Positions 6,593-54,083 of a stretch of DNA of 64,000 nt are shown here, one piece after another. The notes under the pieces were generated by a model that made no database searches, was not told the origin of the DNA, and worked only from the letters and a program-made list of their open reading frames with translations. The stretch's first letter is position 1; the number at the start of each line of letters is the position of its first letter. Origin of the DNA: Chiloscyllium plagiosum (lineage: Eukaryota); assembly GCF_004010195.1 (NCBI RefSeq), contig NC_057752.1, forward strand, positions 3,776,726-3,840,725, given 5' to 3'. Made by a program: the position numbers and the translations under genes.

Positions 6593-9045
6593 CGCTATGT
6601 TGGTTACGATGTCCTCCCAGATTGGATTGGGCCGTCCACGATCATTCTCCAGGGTCACAAAAACATGAACAGCCACATGACACAGGAGAAAACCAACATC
6701 TACAGACTTGTATCTCAACTGGAGTGGAAGATAGACACAACTATTCTGAGGTTGGACGATCTGTTTTCAGTAATGCAACAATCACTTACACAGAGGCATT
6801 GCACAGCTGTGATATAAAACAAAACTTCCTTTCATCTGCTTTCCACTCGGAAGAGTACACTCCTATTCCACTGTGGCATTCCTGTTCCCGTCTCATCATC
6901 TTTCCGAGTAAGATTGACAATCGAGTGCCAATTAGTGCTGAATTACAGGCAACTGTGTGCTCTGGACTCTTATCTATTTGAAATTCAGTAGTCCAAACTA
7001 ATTTCACTTGGGCCTCCTGTACCTGTCACAGTTAAGACTTGCAGCCATCAGTCTGAGCTGATAAGCCTGTGTTCCAATTCGCGACATCACCCTGTTCCCC
7101 TTTTGAAACTACTGCTAAATAATAACACTTCATCCACCACAAAGCAGATTGTCCTTCTTATCAACAATTTCACCAATCATCGGCTTCTGAGCTATCTTTC
7201 CCGCAGCTGCACTCACTTTATTTATTGAAAAGTTTCAGAGGACAGTGAAGGATCTGAAAAGCTTATGAGAGTTGTGCAAAGGCCAGAGAACACACAAGAG
7301 AAAAGAAAAAGAGAGAATTAGACTTCAAAAGAGAAGACAGGGGAATGCAAAATGAGGTAAAGTCAGGTGACTGAAGCGCTGAAGTGTTTGAGGGCTAGTC
7401 AGAGAGACTGGAATCAAAATGAACTCCCATGAAGGTAAAACAGCTAAAAGGACAAGGGAGACCGCTGCAATATATCGGACCAATCAATGGCATTTCAAGC
7501 TCGAATGAGAGGCACTTTATCCAAATCCACCAAATGGGAAATCCATGCAATTGGCCAGAATGTTACTTTTACATCACAACAGAAGTCAAAGTTAAGTGGA
7601 GTATAAACTCAGTGCCTAATCCCATTGATTTCCTCTATGCATGTTAGGTTAAAATGACCACAATTTGGCTCCCTGGTTAAAAAATAGTTTTACACGTAAT
7701 TAAATAAGTATCCTTGGCAGTGTTCCTGAATAGTGGAATGCAGCAAAATACCTGATGGTTACTATCATTTTGTTCTGGGGTTGCAGCTGGATACGAGGTA
7801 TCCACTACTCAAGCCAAGTCTCTATCCAACCAGTTATCTGTCATGGCCGCTTCCTGCTTTTGGATTGGTCAGAATGAGAAGATCGCAAACCAGAGCGCCA
7901 GCATTTGGCAGAAGCAACATCTTATTACTGGGATCGTGAGGAGACCCATAAGGGGAAAAAAAACCCCACTGTCAAACTGCAGTAAACATCTGCAAGAACC
8001 ATGAATGATTTTGCAAGCGCAGACACAACAGATCAGTGAAGCAAGTAAGATAAATGGATCCACGAGACAACTAGATGTGCTGCTGAAAAAAAAAGAGATT
8101 GATGTGTTTTGTTTAGTCAGCCAGGTGTCCAAAACACACGTAAACCAATCACTAATCTTTCGAGCATTCAAAGCAAGTGAGTCAGAAATCCATGCAGGTA
8201 GGTTATGGTGCACACATTCAATCCTGATAGGGATATATTGTCACAAATGAGAAGGCCTGCTACCTTCAATGACTAATCTACTCCTTAAGACTTCACTTAG
8301 TGAGTCACAGTCTGTGGACACTGTGGACACGCCTGATTGGGCATGAGATAATTACATTTGCCCCCAACCCCCCAAAAAAGACGGCTGTGTTCAAATCTTC
8401 CTTCACCAGGTCTGCCATCTTGATTTTAAAGAGATTGCCCTCCTCTTTCCACAGTCCCATAAAGTTCACAATTCGTTGGCCAAACTGCAAATGTTTTTGT
8501 TCAGTGCCAGGAGCTTTCATTACTTGCAGGATGAACATCACAGCTTGCCAAATGTGTGCGCGCACATTACCTCGAAAAAGACGATAGAAAATTGGAATTG
8601 AGATGAATGAGAGGGTCAGTTTGTTGGCTGAAAGGAGCTCTCCCCGATACTAAAATTTCTTATGTTCCCAAGACGTATCGATGTCTAAAGCCTTGCATTA
8701 TTAAGAGTTTAGAATTCCAAAAAGTGCATTGTGACCACCAAAACATGGATTTGTCGAGCACCTTTGAATGCCCCAAGATGTTGCACAACAACACTTTTGA
8801 GTCATATAATGAGGCATGAGGGCAGGTGACCAAAAGGTTAATTAAAGAGGTTGAAGGTCAAAGCTATTATACTAATCTGTCTGTTATAGGCTGTTGCTCA
8901 CTTCTGCTAGTTAATGCTCTCATTATTAGTGTACTGATTGTAACAAGGTCAGTCAGGTGGACCTCAGAATATGAGTTCCCTGATTGGGGCTGTTAACCTG
9001 GTCCAATCAGGGCACCCTGACTGACAGAGAAAAACAGGAGTGTCA

Positions 9046-9313
9046 CACTATACATACACAAACAGATGTTGTGGGGAAAATATAAGCACCACTGCTGTTC
9101 GGTAGTAGTGTGGGGGAATAAGAAAACAAACAAACAGAGGATTCCAAAGGGCTCCTCAGTCTAGGGACAGGCTTTGAGTGGGCTAGTTACAGCCCATGTA
9201 CAGGGCACATATAAATAAAGGGTGACTTAGTGATGGGATACCGGCCTCTGTGCAGTTTATTTCAGTGGTGACGGGAGAAAAAAATGAAAAAAGAAGAAAA
9301 AGAAATAGAAAGA
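9046..9313 (+). mobile_element. Tx1-clade LINE 3' tail plus transduced LTR half, PBS and poly(A), inserted in the Gypsy 5' LTR
   Basis: 9046-9116 matches 15681-15753. It is followed by an LTR 3' half ending ttatttca (9264), PBS-like tggtgacggg and an A-rich tail. Flanked by aaacaggagtgtca / aaaaagaagtgtca (12 of 14 identical). Confidence 0.75.
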
Positions 9314-9445
9314 AAAAAGAAGTGTCAGAGATTCTCACAGTCTAAGCGTTGGCTTTGAGGGAGCTGGACTAATTTCAAGAACTTTCAATGTGTAAATAAA
9401 GGATGACTTGGTGAAGGGATATCAACTTCCATGCTGTTACTTCAG

Positions 9446-9455
9446 TGGTGACGAG
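9446..9455 (+). promoter_or_regulatory. Primer-binding site, probably tRNA-Ser(GCU)
   Basis: TGGTGACGAG immediately after the LTR end, one CpG-type change from TGGCGACGAG, the complement of the vertebrate tRNA-Ser(GCU) 3' end CUCGUCGCCA. Confidence 0.7.
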
Positions 9456-10170
9456 TAAAACACATTCCTGAAGAAACTCACTTGCAACATTGTCTTTGAG
9501 TTGGGGTAAGCATTTCTGGCACCATGCCATTATTAGTGGAGCTTGACCCATTTGATCCTGTTGAAAACAGCCCAGTATGTGAAAAGAATGTGTTATTTTC
9601 TTTCCTGGAAAATGACATTGGGGCAAATGAAAAGCAATGAGTAATTCTCCTGACAGTTTGTGGACCCGCAGCTTTTTCAGTTATTAGGAGCTGAACTTTC
9701 CCTGAGGCACCAGGTACTAAAACTTTTTAAGAGTTGATGGATTTGGTTCCCAAACCTCCTCTATTCTGAGACACTACTGGTTTTACTTGGCAATTCAAGA
9801 ACCAGTGGAATCCATACTGGCATTTTTGACAAGATCAAGATGGCTGGCAGAGGCATGTGACTTTGGTTTAACCCTTAATGAGATGTTGAGAGACTGGTTG
9901 GAATGTGGGATTAATGGTGTAACCATGCAAAAATGCTGAAGCCCAACATGACTTCAAACAGGCACTCCAACTGGCTTTGTCATTAGAAAATGTGGCAATT
10001 GGAGCATATGAGTTACAGAGGATGCCGGTGGAAGTGGGCATCATTGCCAGTTTGACTGAGCTTGGAGGACACCATTTCAGTGAAAGCAATTGCATAGCCT
10101 CACTCAGGACATATCCTGAACAGAGGGACTTTAGGTCAGCGCACAGCAAAACCCCAAAGTAAACCCAGCC

Positions 10171-10606
10171 TATAGGGAGAGGCTGAACAAGCTGGGGCTG
10201 TTTTCCCTGGAGTGTCGGAGGCTGAGGGGTGACCTTATAGAGGTTTACGAAATTATGAGGGGCATGGATAGGGTAAATAGGCAAAGTCTTTTCCCTGGGG
10301 TCGGGGAGTCCAGAACTAGAGGGTATAGGTTTAGGGTGAGAGGGGAAAAATATAAAAGAGACCTAAGGGGCAACTTTTTCACACAGAGGGTGGTATGTTT
10401 TTGGAATGAGCTGCCAGAGGAAGTGGTGGAGGCTGGTACAATTGCAACATTTAAGAGGCATTTGAATGGGTATATGAATAGGAAGGGTTTGGAGGGATAT
10501 GGGCCGGGTGCTGGCAGGTGGGACTGGATTGGGTTGGGATTTCTGGTCGAAATGGATCGGTTGGACCAAAGGGTCTGTTTCCATGCTGTACATGTCTATG
10601 ACTCTA
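10171..10606 (+). mobile_element. CR1 3' end inserted in Gypsy gag
   Basis: ORF 10255: GESRTRGYRFRVRGEKYKRDLRGNFFTQRVVCFWNELP, followed by the CR1 3' UTR ending atgactcta. Confidence 0.9.
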
Positions 10607-13600
10607 AATGGTTAAAATTTCCTTCAGAATCTGGGCCGGCAGGCCATTGTATTTGCTGCTGATATGCGGGTTCGAGTCAGCAAAAGAGGCCTATTAGGCC
10701 TGAATTGAGTAAGAGAACTCAGAGGCCGGTATCCAGGAGCGTGCACACCTTGGAAAGCCACCTACATCTGGCTTGGAACAGCTACATTGGTTCTGATTTG
10801 GATGTTGCTAAACAATCAAAATAAATGTCTGGTTAAATGGTCACCCAGTTCTAATGGAGGTTGATACCGGCACGGCTGTATCAGGGATTGTGGAACCAGT
10901 CTTTAACAAACGTTGCTCTGAACCCCAACCACTAAGTTTGTGCATGACCTCAGCCAGACTGAGAACCTATACCGGGGAATCTTTACACATTAACGGTACA
11001 GTTTCTGTTCCAGTCTCTTATGAGAAGCAGCTGGTTCAGTTCCCACTGAGTGTAGTAAAAGGCTCAGGCCCAAGCTTGGTGGGTGAAACTGATTCACCGT
11101 GATTGGCTCAACATTTTCCAAATAGAAAATGGCTGCCTGAGTGAACAACTAATTAAATACCCAGAAGATTTTCAGGAAGGTCTAGGGATTGTTAAAGGAG
11201 CCAAGGCTACCTTGCATGTTGACCAGGACACAGTTCCATGATTCTCTAAGGCCCACCCAGTGCCATATGCCTTATGGGCAAAAGTAGAGGCAGAAATCAG
11301 GGAGACTGGAAAGGGAAGGAATCATCAAACCAGTCCAGGAATGGGCAGCACCAGGCGTACTGATTGTGAAGCCCGATGGGTTGGTTTACCTTTGTAAGGA
11401 TTTTATACAAACAGTGAATAAATACCCAATCTCTCATGTAAAGGATTTGTACACAAAACAGGCTGGGGGTGGGGGATGTCCTTTATGAAGCTAACCTGCA
11501 ACTGCGATTAGATGAGGATTCCCAGAGGTATGCTACAATTAATACCCATAAGGGCTTGTGCCAATATACAAGACTGCCATTTGGGGTATCATAGCATGTG
11601 CAATTTTTCAGCGGACGATGGAGAGCATTTTACAAGGTCTACCTCAGGTTGCCATTTATCTAGATTATATGCTAATAACAGGGAAGACCAATAAGGAGCA
11701 CTTAGAGAACTTGGACATAGTCTTTAGATGTTTCTCTCAGGTGGGCGCATGCCCAATAAGGGACACTTGCATGTTCCAGGCATTCCAAAGTGACCTCCTT
11801 GGGCTACAGAGTCAGCATTATAACTGTTGAAAGATAAAGTGAGGGCGATCAAAGGGGCCCCGGATCCCAGGACTGTACCAGAGCAGATGCATTGAGCAGG
11901 CTCCCACTGGCAGATACTTCACCAGTGGTACCATCATTGGAAGTTTCTGTAATGGTTTTAAATTTTCTGGACACACTTCCAGTCACAGCTGACAATATCA
12001 GACTTTGGTCACAGAAAGATCCCATCCTGGCAGAACTGAAACAGCTGGTGGGGATGGGGGAAACCAAAGGGCCATCACAATCTGTTACACATCGACTATG
12101 CAGGTTCGTTCATGGGTTCAATGCTCTCAGTCACTATGGACCGTCATTAAAAGTGGTTGGGCATGCACAGAGTTCATTTGTCAAACACAGGGACAATGAC
12201 AGAAAAACTGTACAAATCGTTTGCAATACATGGACTCCCAGAAGTGTTGGTCACAGATAACAGGCTATCATTTACCAGCAGGGAATTTCAGTATTTCCTA
12301 CAGTTGAATGGCATTTGTCATAAGGACAGCTCCATACCATCTAATGGTCTGGCAGAAAGAGCAGTCTAAACTTTGAAGGCAAGCTTGAAGAAACAGTTGA
12401 CAGCCTCGCTAGGTACCAAACCTCCTGGTTCCTGTTTGATTATTGGACTATTCCCTCCAACCTTGTAACTACAGGGATAGCACCAGCAGAGTTTTAATGG
12501 GGAGAGGACTCCACACCAGGTTAACTTGGATCTTCCCGGACCTGGGGTAGGCGAAGGGTGAAATGGCATCAGAAATGCCAATGTTGAACATAAGACTCTG
12601 CCAAGCAGAGACAGTTTACTTCAGGGGACAAAGTTTGGTGTGGGAACCAAGGGAATGGCCCTGCATGGGCAAGAGGCATGGTTGATGCGAGGTCAGGTCC
12701 ACTGATGTATAAAGTTCGGGTAGGTGCTATGGTCCTGAACAAACATGTGGACTATATGAAAGCTGCAAACTCACAAACAATGTGGGAGCAAAACATACCC
12801 AGCTCCTCAGAGCAGTCAGAAAGGCTGGCAGAACCCATGGGTTCTCCCTCTCCATCCAGCATTGAAGCCACCTTGGTATCGGAGATGGTCACAGCGAACA
12901 CCGCTACCCTGACACCTTTACCGCCTGAAGAGGAGAATGAATTTCTCCTGAGCTGCATGAGGTGAACTTCTGTGCGTTACACACAGCCTGTATCCAAGGC
13001 CGAGCCAGAGGATCCTGACCTGGTGCTAAAATGCCCCAGGAGGAGCTACAAGATAAAGGACCAGCCTATGTCCTCGAACTGAGAGGGGAAGGGATGTTGT
13101 GATTGTATCGAGGTCAGCTAGGTAGACCTCATAGAATGAGTTCCCTGATTGGACCAGATTAATAGCCTTAATCAGGGAGCCCTGGCTGACAGATATAAAC
13201 AGGAGGGTCCGAGGCTCTGTTCACTCTGAGAGAGCTAGATCAATATTAAGGACTCTCCACGTATCAATAAAAAGGGGGGTCTTGGTGATGGGACATAGGC
13301 CTCTGTGGAGTCATTTCTGTTAGATCCCTGAATTCTGATATTTTAAATGAACAGGTCAGACTTTCTGACAATATCCAATGGAGTGATACCCATCATTAAA
13401 CCCAGGAAAAACACAGTCAACACGGGGAGTGCAGATCAATAAAGTATGAGTGATTGTCAGAAAGCCAAAGTTGGAATTCTTTCAGCTCTGCCCTGGAAGT
13501 CAGACAGTTGAGTCACTCTGGTTTTAATTTTGAAAGCTGGAAGCTATACTGGGCCAGTTTGGACAGTGCCCAGTTGAAAGATGGTCAGAAGGATTTTGTT

Positions 13601-14819: not shown

Positions 14820-14935
14820 AAAAAGAAACTCTCTCCTCCAAAGCAGAGACTAACAGTAGCAGTGACACACTGACTGTGGCCCAGCCAACACAGTCAGTCC
14901 CCTAAACTGAGGAGATTCTCATCTCCTGGTTATAT
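14820..14935 (-). mobile_element. Fragment of Gypsy-family LTR
   Basis: gtcagtcccctaaactgaggagattctcatctcctggttatat matches 53737-53776 and the LTR 3' half. Confidence 0.5.
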
Positions 14936-15014
14936 TTTTTTTACAGGCATTTTGCATCTGTTTTTGGGGTCAGAATATTTGGAAGCTTGTCACTGTGACG
15001 ATCTGGAACAATTC

Positions 15015-15333: not shown

Positions 15334-15892
15334 TACAGTGATTTTTGCATTGGTCTTCTGGAGTGGTTGAAACCAGGTGGACCTTTATTGATTGGCTCAG
15401 GTTAACAACTGGAGGTTCTGGTTGACAAATATTACCAGGTGATTTCCAATCTTCTGTGGTTATGTCAGAGCCTGGGTGTCCCTGGAAACCAACACCGTGG
15501 AGCTGTTTGGAGTGGAGATTTAACCCTTGCCTTCCCTTCCCTTTCACTGTTTGATCATGCAGCATTGCCCTTTGATTTGAAAGGCACTGCTTGTCACTAG
15601 CCACCTGGGTGCTTCCTTTCTTCCTGTTGGTGGAAATTTGAATAAAAACTCGTGCACCTTGTGTCTCTGACTGTGTCCCACACCTGCGCATGCACACAAT
15701 ATGGGTGCTGGGGAAAAAATAAGCAGTAGCACAGTTAGGTGGTAGTGTGGGGGTGAACAAATTAACAGGGGATTCAGACTCTCCTCAGTTCAGCGGATGG
15801 ACTTTGACTTGGCTGGTTACAGCCAGTATACTATGCATAAGTAAAGAAAGAGGGAGTTGGTGATGGGACACTGGCCTCTGTGCAGTTATTTC
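15334..15892 (+). mobile_element. Solo Gypsy-family LTR interrupted by a Tx1-clade insertion
   Basis: ccaggtggacct...ctggttgacaaatat at the 5' side and ggtgatgggacactggcctctgtgcagttatttc at the 3' end match the LTR family. Confidence 0.7.
15445..15760 (+). mobile_element. 5'-truncated Tx1-clade (L1 group) LINE: ORF2 C-terminus and 3' UTR
   Basis: Reads FCGYVRAWVSLETNTVELF, which I recognise as resembling the C-terminus of Tx1-type ORF2 proteins. AATAAA at 15641. Flanked by attaccaggtgatt / attaacaggggatt (12 of 14 identical). Confidence 0.7.
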
Positions 15893-15954
15893 CTCTTTGC
15901 TATCGATGTTCAAGGTAAATAGCAGTAAAGCAGGAAATGGAAGGATGTGGAATA

Positions 15955-23382: not shown

Positions 23383-23578
23383 TTAGAGTGGTGCTGGAAA
23401 TGCACAGCAGGTCAGGCAGCATCTGAGGAGCAGGAGAATCGATGTTTCGGGCAAAAGCCCTTCATCAGGAATCAGGAAACGTTGATTCTCCTGCTCCACA
23501 GATGCTGCCTGACCTGCTGCGCTTTTCCAGCACCACTCTCTAATCTTGACTCTGATCTGCAGTCCTCACTTTTGTCTA
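23383..23578. mobile_element. Fold-back mini-PLE with hammerhead core
   Basis: Inverted pLTR halves. TSD gtagatggtgg / gtagacggtgg (23372-23382, 23579-23589). Confidence 0.8.
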
Positions 23579-33871: not shown

Positions 33872-34113
33872 GAGAAAGTGAGGTCTGCAGATGCTGGAGA
33901 TCAGAGCTGAAAATGTGTTGCTGGAAAAGCGCAGCAGGTCAGGCAGCATCCAGGGAACAGGAGAATCGACATTTCTGGCATAAGCCCTTCTTCAGGAATG
34001 AGCCCTTCTTCAGGAATCTCATTCCTGAAGAAGGGCTTATTCCCGAAACGTCGATTCTCCTGTTCCCTGGATGCTGCCTGACCTGCTGTGCTGTTCCAGC
34101 AACACATTTTCAG
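33872..34113. mobile_element. Fold-back mini-PLE with intact hammerhead core
   Basis: Inverted arms 33907-34000 / 34020-34114. 16-bp TSD cagtaatctgttttag / cagtattctgttttag. Confidence 0.85.
34025..34052 (+). ncRNA. Minimal type I hammerhead ribozyme core
   Basis: CTGAAGA-a-GGGcttattCCC-GAAA-CGTC: CUGANGA box, stem II, GAAA box, palindromic ACGT stem III, GUC cleavage triplet. Confidence 0.65.
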
Positions 34114-45571: not shown

Positions 45572-46808
45572 GTTCGTAAGTTTGCAGATGACACCAAAAT
45601 TGGGGGTGTAGTGGACAGAGAAGAGGGTTACCTCAGATTACAACAGGATCTTGATCAGATGGGCCAATGGGCTGAAAAGTGGCAGGTGGAGTTAATTTAG
45701 ATAAATGCAAAGTGCTGCATTTTGGGAAAGCATGGTGGCTCAGTGGTTAGCACTGCTGCCTCACAGCACCGGGGTCCCAGGTTCGATTTCAGCCTCGGGC
45801 GACCGTCTGTGTGGAGTTTGCACATTCTCCCTGTGTCTGTGTGAGTTTTCTCTGGGTGCTCCGGTTTCCTCCCACAATCCAAAGATGTGTAGATTAGGTG
45901 AATTGGCCATGCTAAATTGCCCTTAGGGCGAGGTGTATTAGTCAGAGAGATATGGGTCTGGGAGGGTTGCTCTTCAGAGGGTCGGTGTGGACTGGTTGGG
46001 CCGCAAGGCCTGTTTCCACACTGTAGGGAATCTAATCAAATCTTAGCAGGACCTGTACACTTAATGGTAAGGTCCTTGGGAGCGTTGCTGAACAAAGAGA
46101 CCTTGGAGTGCAGGTTCATAGCTTCTTGAAAGTGGAGTCGCAGGTAGATAGGATAGTGAAGAAGGTGTTTGGTATGCTTTCCTTTATTGGTCAGAGTATT
46201 GAGTACAGGAGTTGGGAGGTCATGTTGCGGCTGTACAGGACATTGGTTAGGCCACTGTTGGAATATTGTGTGCAATTCTGGTCTCTTTCCTATCAGAAAG
46301 ATGTTGTAAAACTTGAAAGGGTTCAGAAAAGATTCACAAGGATGTTGCGAGGGTCGTAGGGTTTGAGCTTTAGGGAGAGGCTGATCAGGCTGTTGCTGTT
46401 TTACCTGGAGTGTCGGAGGCTGAGGGGTGACCTTATAGAGGTTTACAAAATTATGAGGGGCATGGATAGGATAAATAGGCAAAGTCTTTTCACAAAGTTG
46501 GTGGAATCCAGAACTAGAGGGCATAGGTTTAGGATGAGAGGGGAAAGATATAAAAGGGACCTAAGGGGCAACTTTTTCACGCAGAGGGTGGTACGTGCAT
46601 CGAATGAGCTGCCAAGGGAAGAGGTGGAGTCTGGTACAATTGCAACATTTAAAAGGCATTTGGATGGGTATATGAATAGGAAGGGTTTGGAGGGATATGG
46701 GCTGGGTGCTGGCAGGTGGGACTCTATTGGCTTGGGATAACTGGTCAGCATGGATGAGTTGGACTGAAAGGTCTGTTTCCGTGCTGTACATCTCTATGAC
46801 TCTATGAC
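45572..46808 (+). mobile_element. CR1 3' portion, interrupted by HE1
   Basis: KFADDTKIGGVVD, RLYRTLVRPLLEYCVQFW, SRTRGHRF...FFTQRVV. 3' tail tctatgactctatgact. Confidence 0.92.
45730..46037 (+). mobile_element. HE1 (V-SINE)
   Basis: gcatggtggctcagtggttagcactgctgcctcacagc head, V-domain, tail tttccacactgtagggaatctaatc. Confidence 0.9.
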
Positions 46809-53645: not shown

Positions 53646-53860
53646 CTGAAAAAACTGCACAGAAGCTAGGTCCTGTCACTAAGTCGCTCTTTATTTACTC
53701 GTGTACGGTACACTGCCTGTGGCCAACCAGCTCAGAGTCAGTCCTCAACGGAGGAGATTCTAATCTCCTGGTTACATTGGTCAGCCAAGGCTTTCTTGGT
53801 TGAGATTATTAACATGGGCCAATCATATTTAATGAGGTCCACCTCTTTCCAATCCGTACA
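53646..53860 (-). mobile_element. Solo Gypsy-family LTR
   Basis: Bounded TGTA...TTCA on the minus strand. Shares ggtggacctca, ggctgacc and taaataaag with the other LTRs. Confidence 0.7.
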
Positions 53861-54083
53861 GGTTCAGAATGAGACAGGGCTGTTTGCATCCAACAATTAG
53901 GTCAGACACTTGAGCAATTGCCAATTTTAACATCATTGACATGCTGGTAATAACTATTCTTGTCTGAGAGGCCCCTTTCAAGCATAGCCCTAAACCTCTT
54001 CATTAAAGCTGACTCTGCCTCAAACAGTCATACTGTTTCTAAAGAACCCATGACAGTTTGCCAGTGAAGTACCCCAGGAGTTC

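Follow-up and report, generated by a model that had tools for sequence, protein, structure and literature searches.

The host element and its LTR family

The window, which is the whole 64,000-nucleotide stretch of DNA analyzed here, is eukaryotic and rich in repeats, and it contains a dead Ty3/Gypsy element on the plus strand. Its 5' LTR is interrupted by a composite insert at 9046-9313. The upstream half of this LTR (8930-9045) comprises U3 up to a TATA-proximal target site, and the downstream half (9328-9444) carries an AATAAA at 9395-9400. They are followed by a primer binding site (PBS, 9446-9455) and by a decayed interior of many short reading frames (9456-13093). The 3' LTR (13094-13318) is uninterrupted. 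The LTRs at 8930-9444 and 13094-13318, the PBS, a purine run before 13094, and a short target site duplication (TSD) of 5 bp (ATTAG/GTTAG, 4/5 identical) are the marks of a Ty3/Gypsy element. Pfam matched three of nine pieces of the interior, namely gag-asp_proteas (E 0.028, at 10812), RVT_1 (E 1.4e-05, at 11552), and rve (E 2.1e-04, at 12151). All three matches are below the curated cut-offs, and the order of these protease, reverse transcriptase (RT), and integrase remnants fits Ty3/Gypsy. The best PDB matches for the interior, Ty3 Gag-Pol among them, are weak (E 0.013-0.051). Going by the gag start and the PBS, the host lineage may be Mag-like. The RT piece has a 46% relative in a metagenome contig of 1.3 kb (L001:526-729), the sole match of a scan with the RT fragment.

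The two host LTRs diverge strongly. The upstream half is identical to 13094-13210 at 91/112 positions and the downstream half to the 3' LTR at 82/119, and the 3' LTR lacks 12 bp. The pair is either very old or partly converted. The interior also contains the 3' piece of an abundant LINE at about 10170-10606 (89% identical to 46368-46804), which is presumably CR1. The host is broken at many points and its 3' LTR is without the insert; there is no sign that the Gypsy machinery ever copied the arrangement.

Further members of the LTR family are found in the window. Two solo LTRs on the minus strand (1793-2030 and 53647-53870) have an empty target site. A short piece of the same family lies at 14867-14945 (minus strand), 82% identical over 72 bp to 53710-53778; its start is close to the target site and preceded by a run of A, with no LINE tail seen before it. 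Elsewhere in the window, inverted and closely spaced pairs of a repeat of about 90 bp occur at 33874-34111 and 23383-23572.

Anatomy of the composite insert

The insert at 9046-9313 is bracketed by two 14-bp TSD copies (9032-9045 and 9314-9327, 12/14 identical). At no more than two mismatches, the 14-mer occurs at just four sites in the window (9032, 9314, 13197, and 1925 on the minus strand), all within this LTR family. On re-reading the sequence, every part that the original prediction had described was found where it had been placed. All parts lie on the plus strand. The insert opens with the 5'-truncated, 71-bp 3' end (9046-9116) of a poly(A) retroposon present in many copies, a putative Tx1-like LINE. 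An A-rich linker (9117-9131, 73% A) follows, which we read as what is left of the donor LINE's A tail after decay. Next comes the 3' half of an LTR (9132-9264), beginning at that LTR's own target sequence and carrying an AATAAA at 9214-9219. A PBS-like TGGTGACGGG at 9266-9275 (9/10 identical to the host PBS), which would be the donor's PBS, leads into a second, longer A tract (9276-9313), whose first bases match an A run in the leader of paralogous Gypsy copies. From 9276 to 9318, 34 of 43 bases are A, and no other cluster of 43-mers in the window has as many A or T. The order is thus tail, A run (9117-9131), flank, A run (9276-9318), with one TSD around all. Rfam gave no match at E 1 over 8800-9700, and ARAGORN found no tRNA over the whole window. 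We take the donor PBS to resemble the 3' end of tRNA-Ser(GCT).

The insert in sequencing runs

Four sequencing runs (X1, X11, X16, and the RNA run X21) were aligned to 8790-9690 at 80% likeness. A contig of X1 (organism A) spans 9257-9414 with one differing letter, although X1 may be the source sample of the window itself. A contig of X16 (organism C) spans the same positions with four differing letters and two gaps, so that the right TSD copy is covered in both runs. A contig of X11 (organism B) spans 9015-9232 with eight differing letters. The whole insert is spanned by no single listed piece of X1, X11, or X16. An assembly artefact was considered and is ruled out, as the junctions of the insert are spanned by independent contigs under three species labels. 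Since contigs in organisms A, B, and C carry the composite junctions, the composite is older than the split between them.

The insertion site is fixed by empty paralogous LTRs, which leave the window sequence at 9045 and resume with the host letters from 9328. Behind 9045, loose ends in 233, 227, and 205 records (X1, X11, and X16) begin with GAGATTCT, as the host does at 9328. Loose ends before 8930 are seen in 244 records of X1. Over 9286-9316, the depth corresponds to a single contig (19.2 in X1, 7.98 in X16, and 0 in X11), which is a weak measure because records are cut at 9280-9322. Depth over the A tract, within this zone of cut records, gives no sign of further copies of the composite.

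The LINE tail and its target preference

The tail at 9046-9116 is identical to 15689-15753 at 48/64 positions, with a score of 59 against a best score of 37 in five shuffles. It belongs to a multi-copy element, as the summed contig depth is 3568 over 9069-9099 and 19 in the unique flank. RNA reads of relatives switch to an A run directly past 9116, and upstream they follow 15676-15705. In these reads A is found at 9119 in 42/44, at 9122 in 41/44, at 9127 in 42/43, and at 9131 in 39/39, and both RNA and DNA records of relatives have A at 9119-9131. Run X21 has 35 loose ends behind 9134. None of its 407 reads is at least 99% alike to the locus, so the reads come from relatives, and oligo-dT can prime genomic A runs. 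Among the loose ends listed for X21, no pile-up of molecule ends is seen. A look-up of the stretch listed no RNA data set that contains it.

A second copy of the same LINE end lies at 15446-15762 on the plus strand (317 bp), where it splits a solo LTR (about 15360-15893) at the corresponding site, with TSD copies at 15433-15445 and 15763-15775 (10/13). An AATAAA is present at 15641, about 110 nt before its end. In the window, the element is inserted twice just past the TATA-like box of this LTR family, with a TSD of 13-14 bp. Two of the five LTRs in the window that have this site carry the element there, in the same orientation. The element is a target-preferring poly(A) retroposon. Its membership in the Tx1 group is likely; 9046-9116 itself contains no Tx1 signal, and the label derives from the longer copy (15446-15760). 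That copy starts with the end of an ORF of 26 amino acids, which we take to resemble the C-terminus of Tx1 ORF2. This peptide, a very short query, had no Pfam match at E 1 and no PDB match at E 10.

The last 80 nt of the longer copy (15680-15760) are predicted to fold better than all of 200 shuffles (z -3.62). For the tail in the insert (9046-9120), the predicted hairpin reaches just z -1.34, and other folds win once more upstream sequence is included. The first bases of the insert lie at the foot of the predicted terminal hairpin of the LINE end (9046-9113), a fold that depends on its context.

Origin of the LTR half

The LTR half at 9132-9264 had been described as nearer to the LTR type at 15762-15892 than to the host. 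The comparison with the host stands: 100/132 positions are identical to 15761-15893 and 86/129 to the adjacent host half, with 85/119 for the host 3' LTR. However, that type is not unique, because the solo LTR near 1.9 kb (1925-1793) is equally close at 99/130; the solo LTR at 53773-53647 gives 92/127. Since the two host LTRs agree with each other at just 82/119 positions of this half, identity alone cannot decide the origin of the LTR half. A tree was built from six LTR halves over 132 columns, leaving out the partial copy at 14867-14936 as too short. The host 5' half and the host 3' LTR group at 98/97. A grouping of the insert with the adjacent host half is rejected (p-AU 0.0127), whereas a clade of the insert with both host halves is compatible with the data (p-AU 0.312). 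Among 16 diagnostic columns, ten side with the solo LTRs, five with the host, and one with neither (p=0.30).

The target bases at the start of the cargo add to this comparison. Its first 13 bases are identical to 15763-15775 at 11 positions, including six of the last seven, and to the host target at 9/13, with 3/7 and 4/7 in the last seven bases for the two host copies. The two real TSD copies agree with each other at 6/7 there. In addition, an X11 contig matches 9132-9257 with 22 differing letters and two gaps, far closer than the host half does. Taken together, the identities, the tree, and the target bases favor the assignment of the cargo LTR half to another subfamily than the host LTR.

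If a plain LINE insertion had been followed by local tandem duplication of the host's LTR half and PBS, the insert would be closest to its neighbor at 9321-9444, which the original prediction had named as the refuting observation. This is not what is found, as the host halves form their clade at 98/97 without the insert and the grouping of insert and host half fails at p-AU 0.0127. The insert resembles the host half (86/129) about as poorly as the two host LTRs resemble each other (82/119), and 5/16 diagnostic columns side with the host, which a duplication could accommodate. The closeness of the X11 contig to 9132-9257 speaks against it, and a duplication leaves the 38-bp A tract unexplained. 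Local tandem duplication is largely refuted, and we regard it as very unlikely.

The same target bases bear on an origin from two RNAs, by a template jump or by two stacked insertions. In either case a polyadenylated LTR-PBS RNA would have been copied first and the LINE 3' end next. The target opens with an A run that offers possible microhomology for such a jump. A stack would leave a host-type target between the two parts, whereas the middle copy agrees with the host at 3/7 and 4/7 and with the other subfamily at 6/7. LTR-driven RNA would be expected to start 25-30 nt past the TATA box, whereas the cargo starts at the 3' edge of the box. Template jumps by LINE RT have been described (PMC2104539 and PMC4494074, in the portions available), and yet a two-RNA origin appears improbable here.

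The poly(A) signal and the end of the cargo

The original prediction held that the donor RNA used the poly(A) signal of the LTR. This part is not supported. The A tract begins 56 nt after the end of the AATAAA, or about 63 nt after it if the A run of the leader is taken to be template-derived. In human transduction donors, the poly(A) signal lies 10-40 nt before the new tail in six of seven cases, a distance that is typical and not obligatory according to the part of PMC9311842 available. The AATAAA at 9214-9219 is the only one in the cargo, and none of 13 hexamer variants tested occurs between 9220 and 9276. No hairpin that brings the AATAAA near the A tract was found (z=+0.80; host equivalent z -0.42). 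Thus, the RNA probably did not end at the normal site of the LTR.

The cargo extends beyond the LTR and the PBS. In paralogs, a GA is inserted behind 9452 (in 8, 2, and 2 contigs), which gives a match of 15/17 to 9266-9282 by hand count. Past the PBS, the insert follows the Gypsy leader of these paralogs into the leader's short A run. This continuation bears on the capture of a Gypsy reverse-transcription intermediate from a LINE-bearing LTR. Such a tRNA-primed strong-stop DNA spans R-U5-PBS, which the cargo indeed covers. The cargo, however, has ten PBS bases and then the Gypsy leader, and the bases past the PBS core are, as far as we judge, not further complementary to the tRNA. An A tract at the end and a LINE-type TSD at the LINE's own site are also against a strong-stop DNA, and we consider this origin extremely unlikely. 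Pure internal priming on the leader's A run was set aside as well, because the insert has a 38-bp A tail and insertions of that kind have none (PMC5402677, in the part available).

Two possibilities are left for the end of the cargo. Either cleavage and tailing of the RNA took place at an unusual position, or the A tract stems from an earlier, plain insertion that was patched as DNA. Since the gap of 56-63 nt is beyond the usual range, a DNA-repair patch stays alive as a rival. It would start from a plain LINE insertion consisting of tail, A tract, and TSD, whose A tract later broke. The broken end would have invaded a LINE-bearing 5' LTR elsewhere by homology in the tail, and synthesis would have copied the tail, A run, LTR half, and PBS. 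At the leader's A run, the new strand would have returned to the A tract of the host. The final structure would be identical, and it would be clear why the cargo stops at a templated A run so distant from the AATAAA. DNA-repair patches of this kind are rare. This one would require two events and just 71 bp of homology, and the orthologs in organisms B and C contain portions of the complete composite. In L1-type elements, by comparison, transduction is common, at 2.7-4.0% per element (PMC9311842, in the part available). A patch is therefore unlikely; transduction is preferred because it is common for such elements and a single event suffices.

Probable 3' transduction between two copies of one target

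The composite insert is a single real fossil, most likely of a known copying error, 3' transduction, and involves no new mechanism. Its specific source was probably a read-through RNA from a different Gypsy 5' LTR with a LINE copy at the corresponding site, inserted by target-primed reverse transcription (TPRT). The hallmarks of TPRT are present around the composite, with the 12/14 TSD, two A runs, and empty paralogs that define the site. Other elements of this proposal are likewise supported: a donor LTR of a different subfamily (p-AU 0.0127 against grouping with the host half), and, from the PBS that trails the LTR half, a donor that was a 5' LTR. The host indeed contains two U5-PBS modules, with the donor PBS at 9266-9275 and the host PBS at 9446-9455; this doubling is a by-product. 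The "third insertion" at the same target that was proposed is something we infer, and it is unsurprising given the frequency of hits at this site.

The following course of events can be envisaged. A Gypsy element of a different subfamily would have carried a LINE copy at the target site of its 5' LTR. Transcription, from either the LINE promoter or the TATA box of the donor LTR, would have run through the LINE A tail, the rest of the donor LTR, and the PBS, with no cleavage at the usual distance past the LTR's AATAAA. The RNA would have acquired its poly(A) end at the short A run that opens the Gypsy leader. The LINE enzyme then presumably nicked the host LTR at that target site and began reverse transcription at the 3' end of the RNA, as suggested by the TSD, the A tract, and the site. 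Copying may have halted some 270 nt on, where a microhomology of 3-5 bases with the target end is present. The motif GTGTC is present both in the host at 9040-9044 and in the LINE at 15673-15677. Because the host 3' LTR is intact, the insertion postdates the integration of the host.

The layout of tail, A run, and LTR half also occurs at 15680-15893, so donors of this shape exist. The LINE copy at 15446-15762 has this donor-like layout, yet it is no donor, since its LTR is not followed by a PBS and its identity to the insert is about 75%. Pattern scans for the tail in metagenome and viral contig collections gave no hit in either. The resulting composite is dead and unlikely to have any function.

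A bolder reading is that the insert represents a recurrent product. The LINE end past the LTR TATA box would be transcribed from that box, the cap-proximal poly(A) signal would be occluded, and the short RNA would be mobilized in trans into LTRs of other subfamilies. We think this improbable, and equally so that such a short RNA would consist of the LINE hairpin, the LTR half, and the PBS. The position of the insert's first base at the foot of the predicted 3' hairpin fits a discrete RNA, and equally a simple truncation.

As a single fossil, the insert is of minor importance. On the preferred reading, transcription of an LTR-targeting LINE continues into its host LTR, and such a LINE can carry LTR and PBS sequence from one Gypsy subfamily to another. 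The LINE would also accept targets differing at 4/13 bases. The insert is, in addition, a marker common to three related species. If such composites recur, they would be a LINE-driven route to chimeric LTRs and of greater importance. If the insert were a recurrent product, a target-specific LINE would shuffle R-U5-PBS modules from one Gypsy subfamily to another, which could seed chimeric LTRs or a SINE-like family.

Comparison with known systems

A close parallel to transduction from a LINE-bearing 5' LTR is the 3' transduction of human L1 and SVA, as described in the available part of PMC9311842. These insertions share with the composite a 5'-truncated end, the old A tail, the 3' flank of the source, a new A tail, and one TSD around the whole. 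The cargo of about 145-150 bp is within the range of L1 transductions (8-997 bp). Here, the cargo derives from the very repeat that the element targets and landed in another copy of that repeat, and its end lies 56-63 nt past the hexamer instead of 10-40 nt.

Site preference of the kind seen here is known from Tx1 families. The crocodilian Tx1-8_Crp and Tx1-4_AMi prefer groups of LTR retrotransposons, Tx1-Mar/SINEU-3 inserts in Mariner-N4_AMi, and Xenopus Tx1 inserts in Tx1D (PMC4494074, in the part available). Like the element described here, they are poly(A) retroposons at a fixed site in another transposon, with a similar TSD (16 bp for SINEU-3). Unlike the insert, the "transduction" in the available text of that source refers to 5' extensions, and no 3' cargo of target sequence is described in it.

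Transcripts of the site-specific R2Ol also run into the downstream target (PMC6795142, in the part available), as is proposed for the insert. In R2Ol, however, the read-through RNA anneals to the target, copying proceeds from the end of the element, and no cargo is left. In the insert, copying would have begun at the far end. It may be speculated that the four differences in 13 bases between the donor and host targets prevented annealing. LINE template-jump chimeras in Magnaporthe likewise have a LINE end and another RNA within one TSD (PMC2104539, in the part available). Their parts come from different RNAs, whereas here the parts are joined as at the natural locus 15680-15893.

In the titles and abstract openings searched, a scope outside which subscription papers and Repbase reports lie, no description of 3' transduction of a target LTR by a Tx1 element was found. 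LTR-targeting Tx1 elements and 3' transduction are both known already, and their combination follows directly from these two behaviors.
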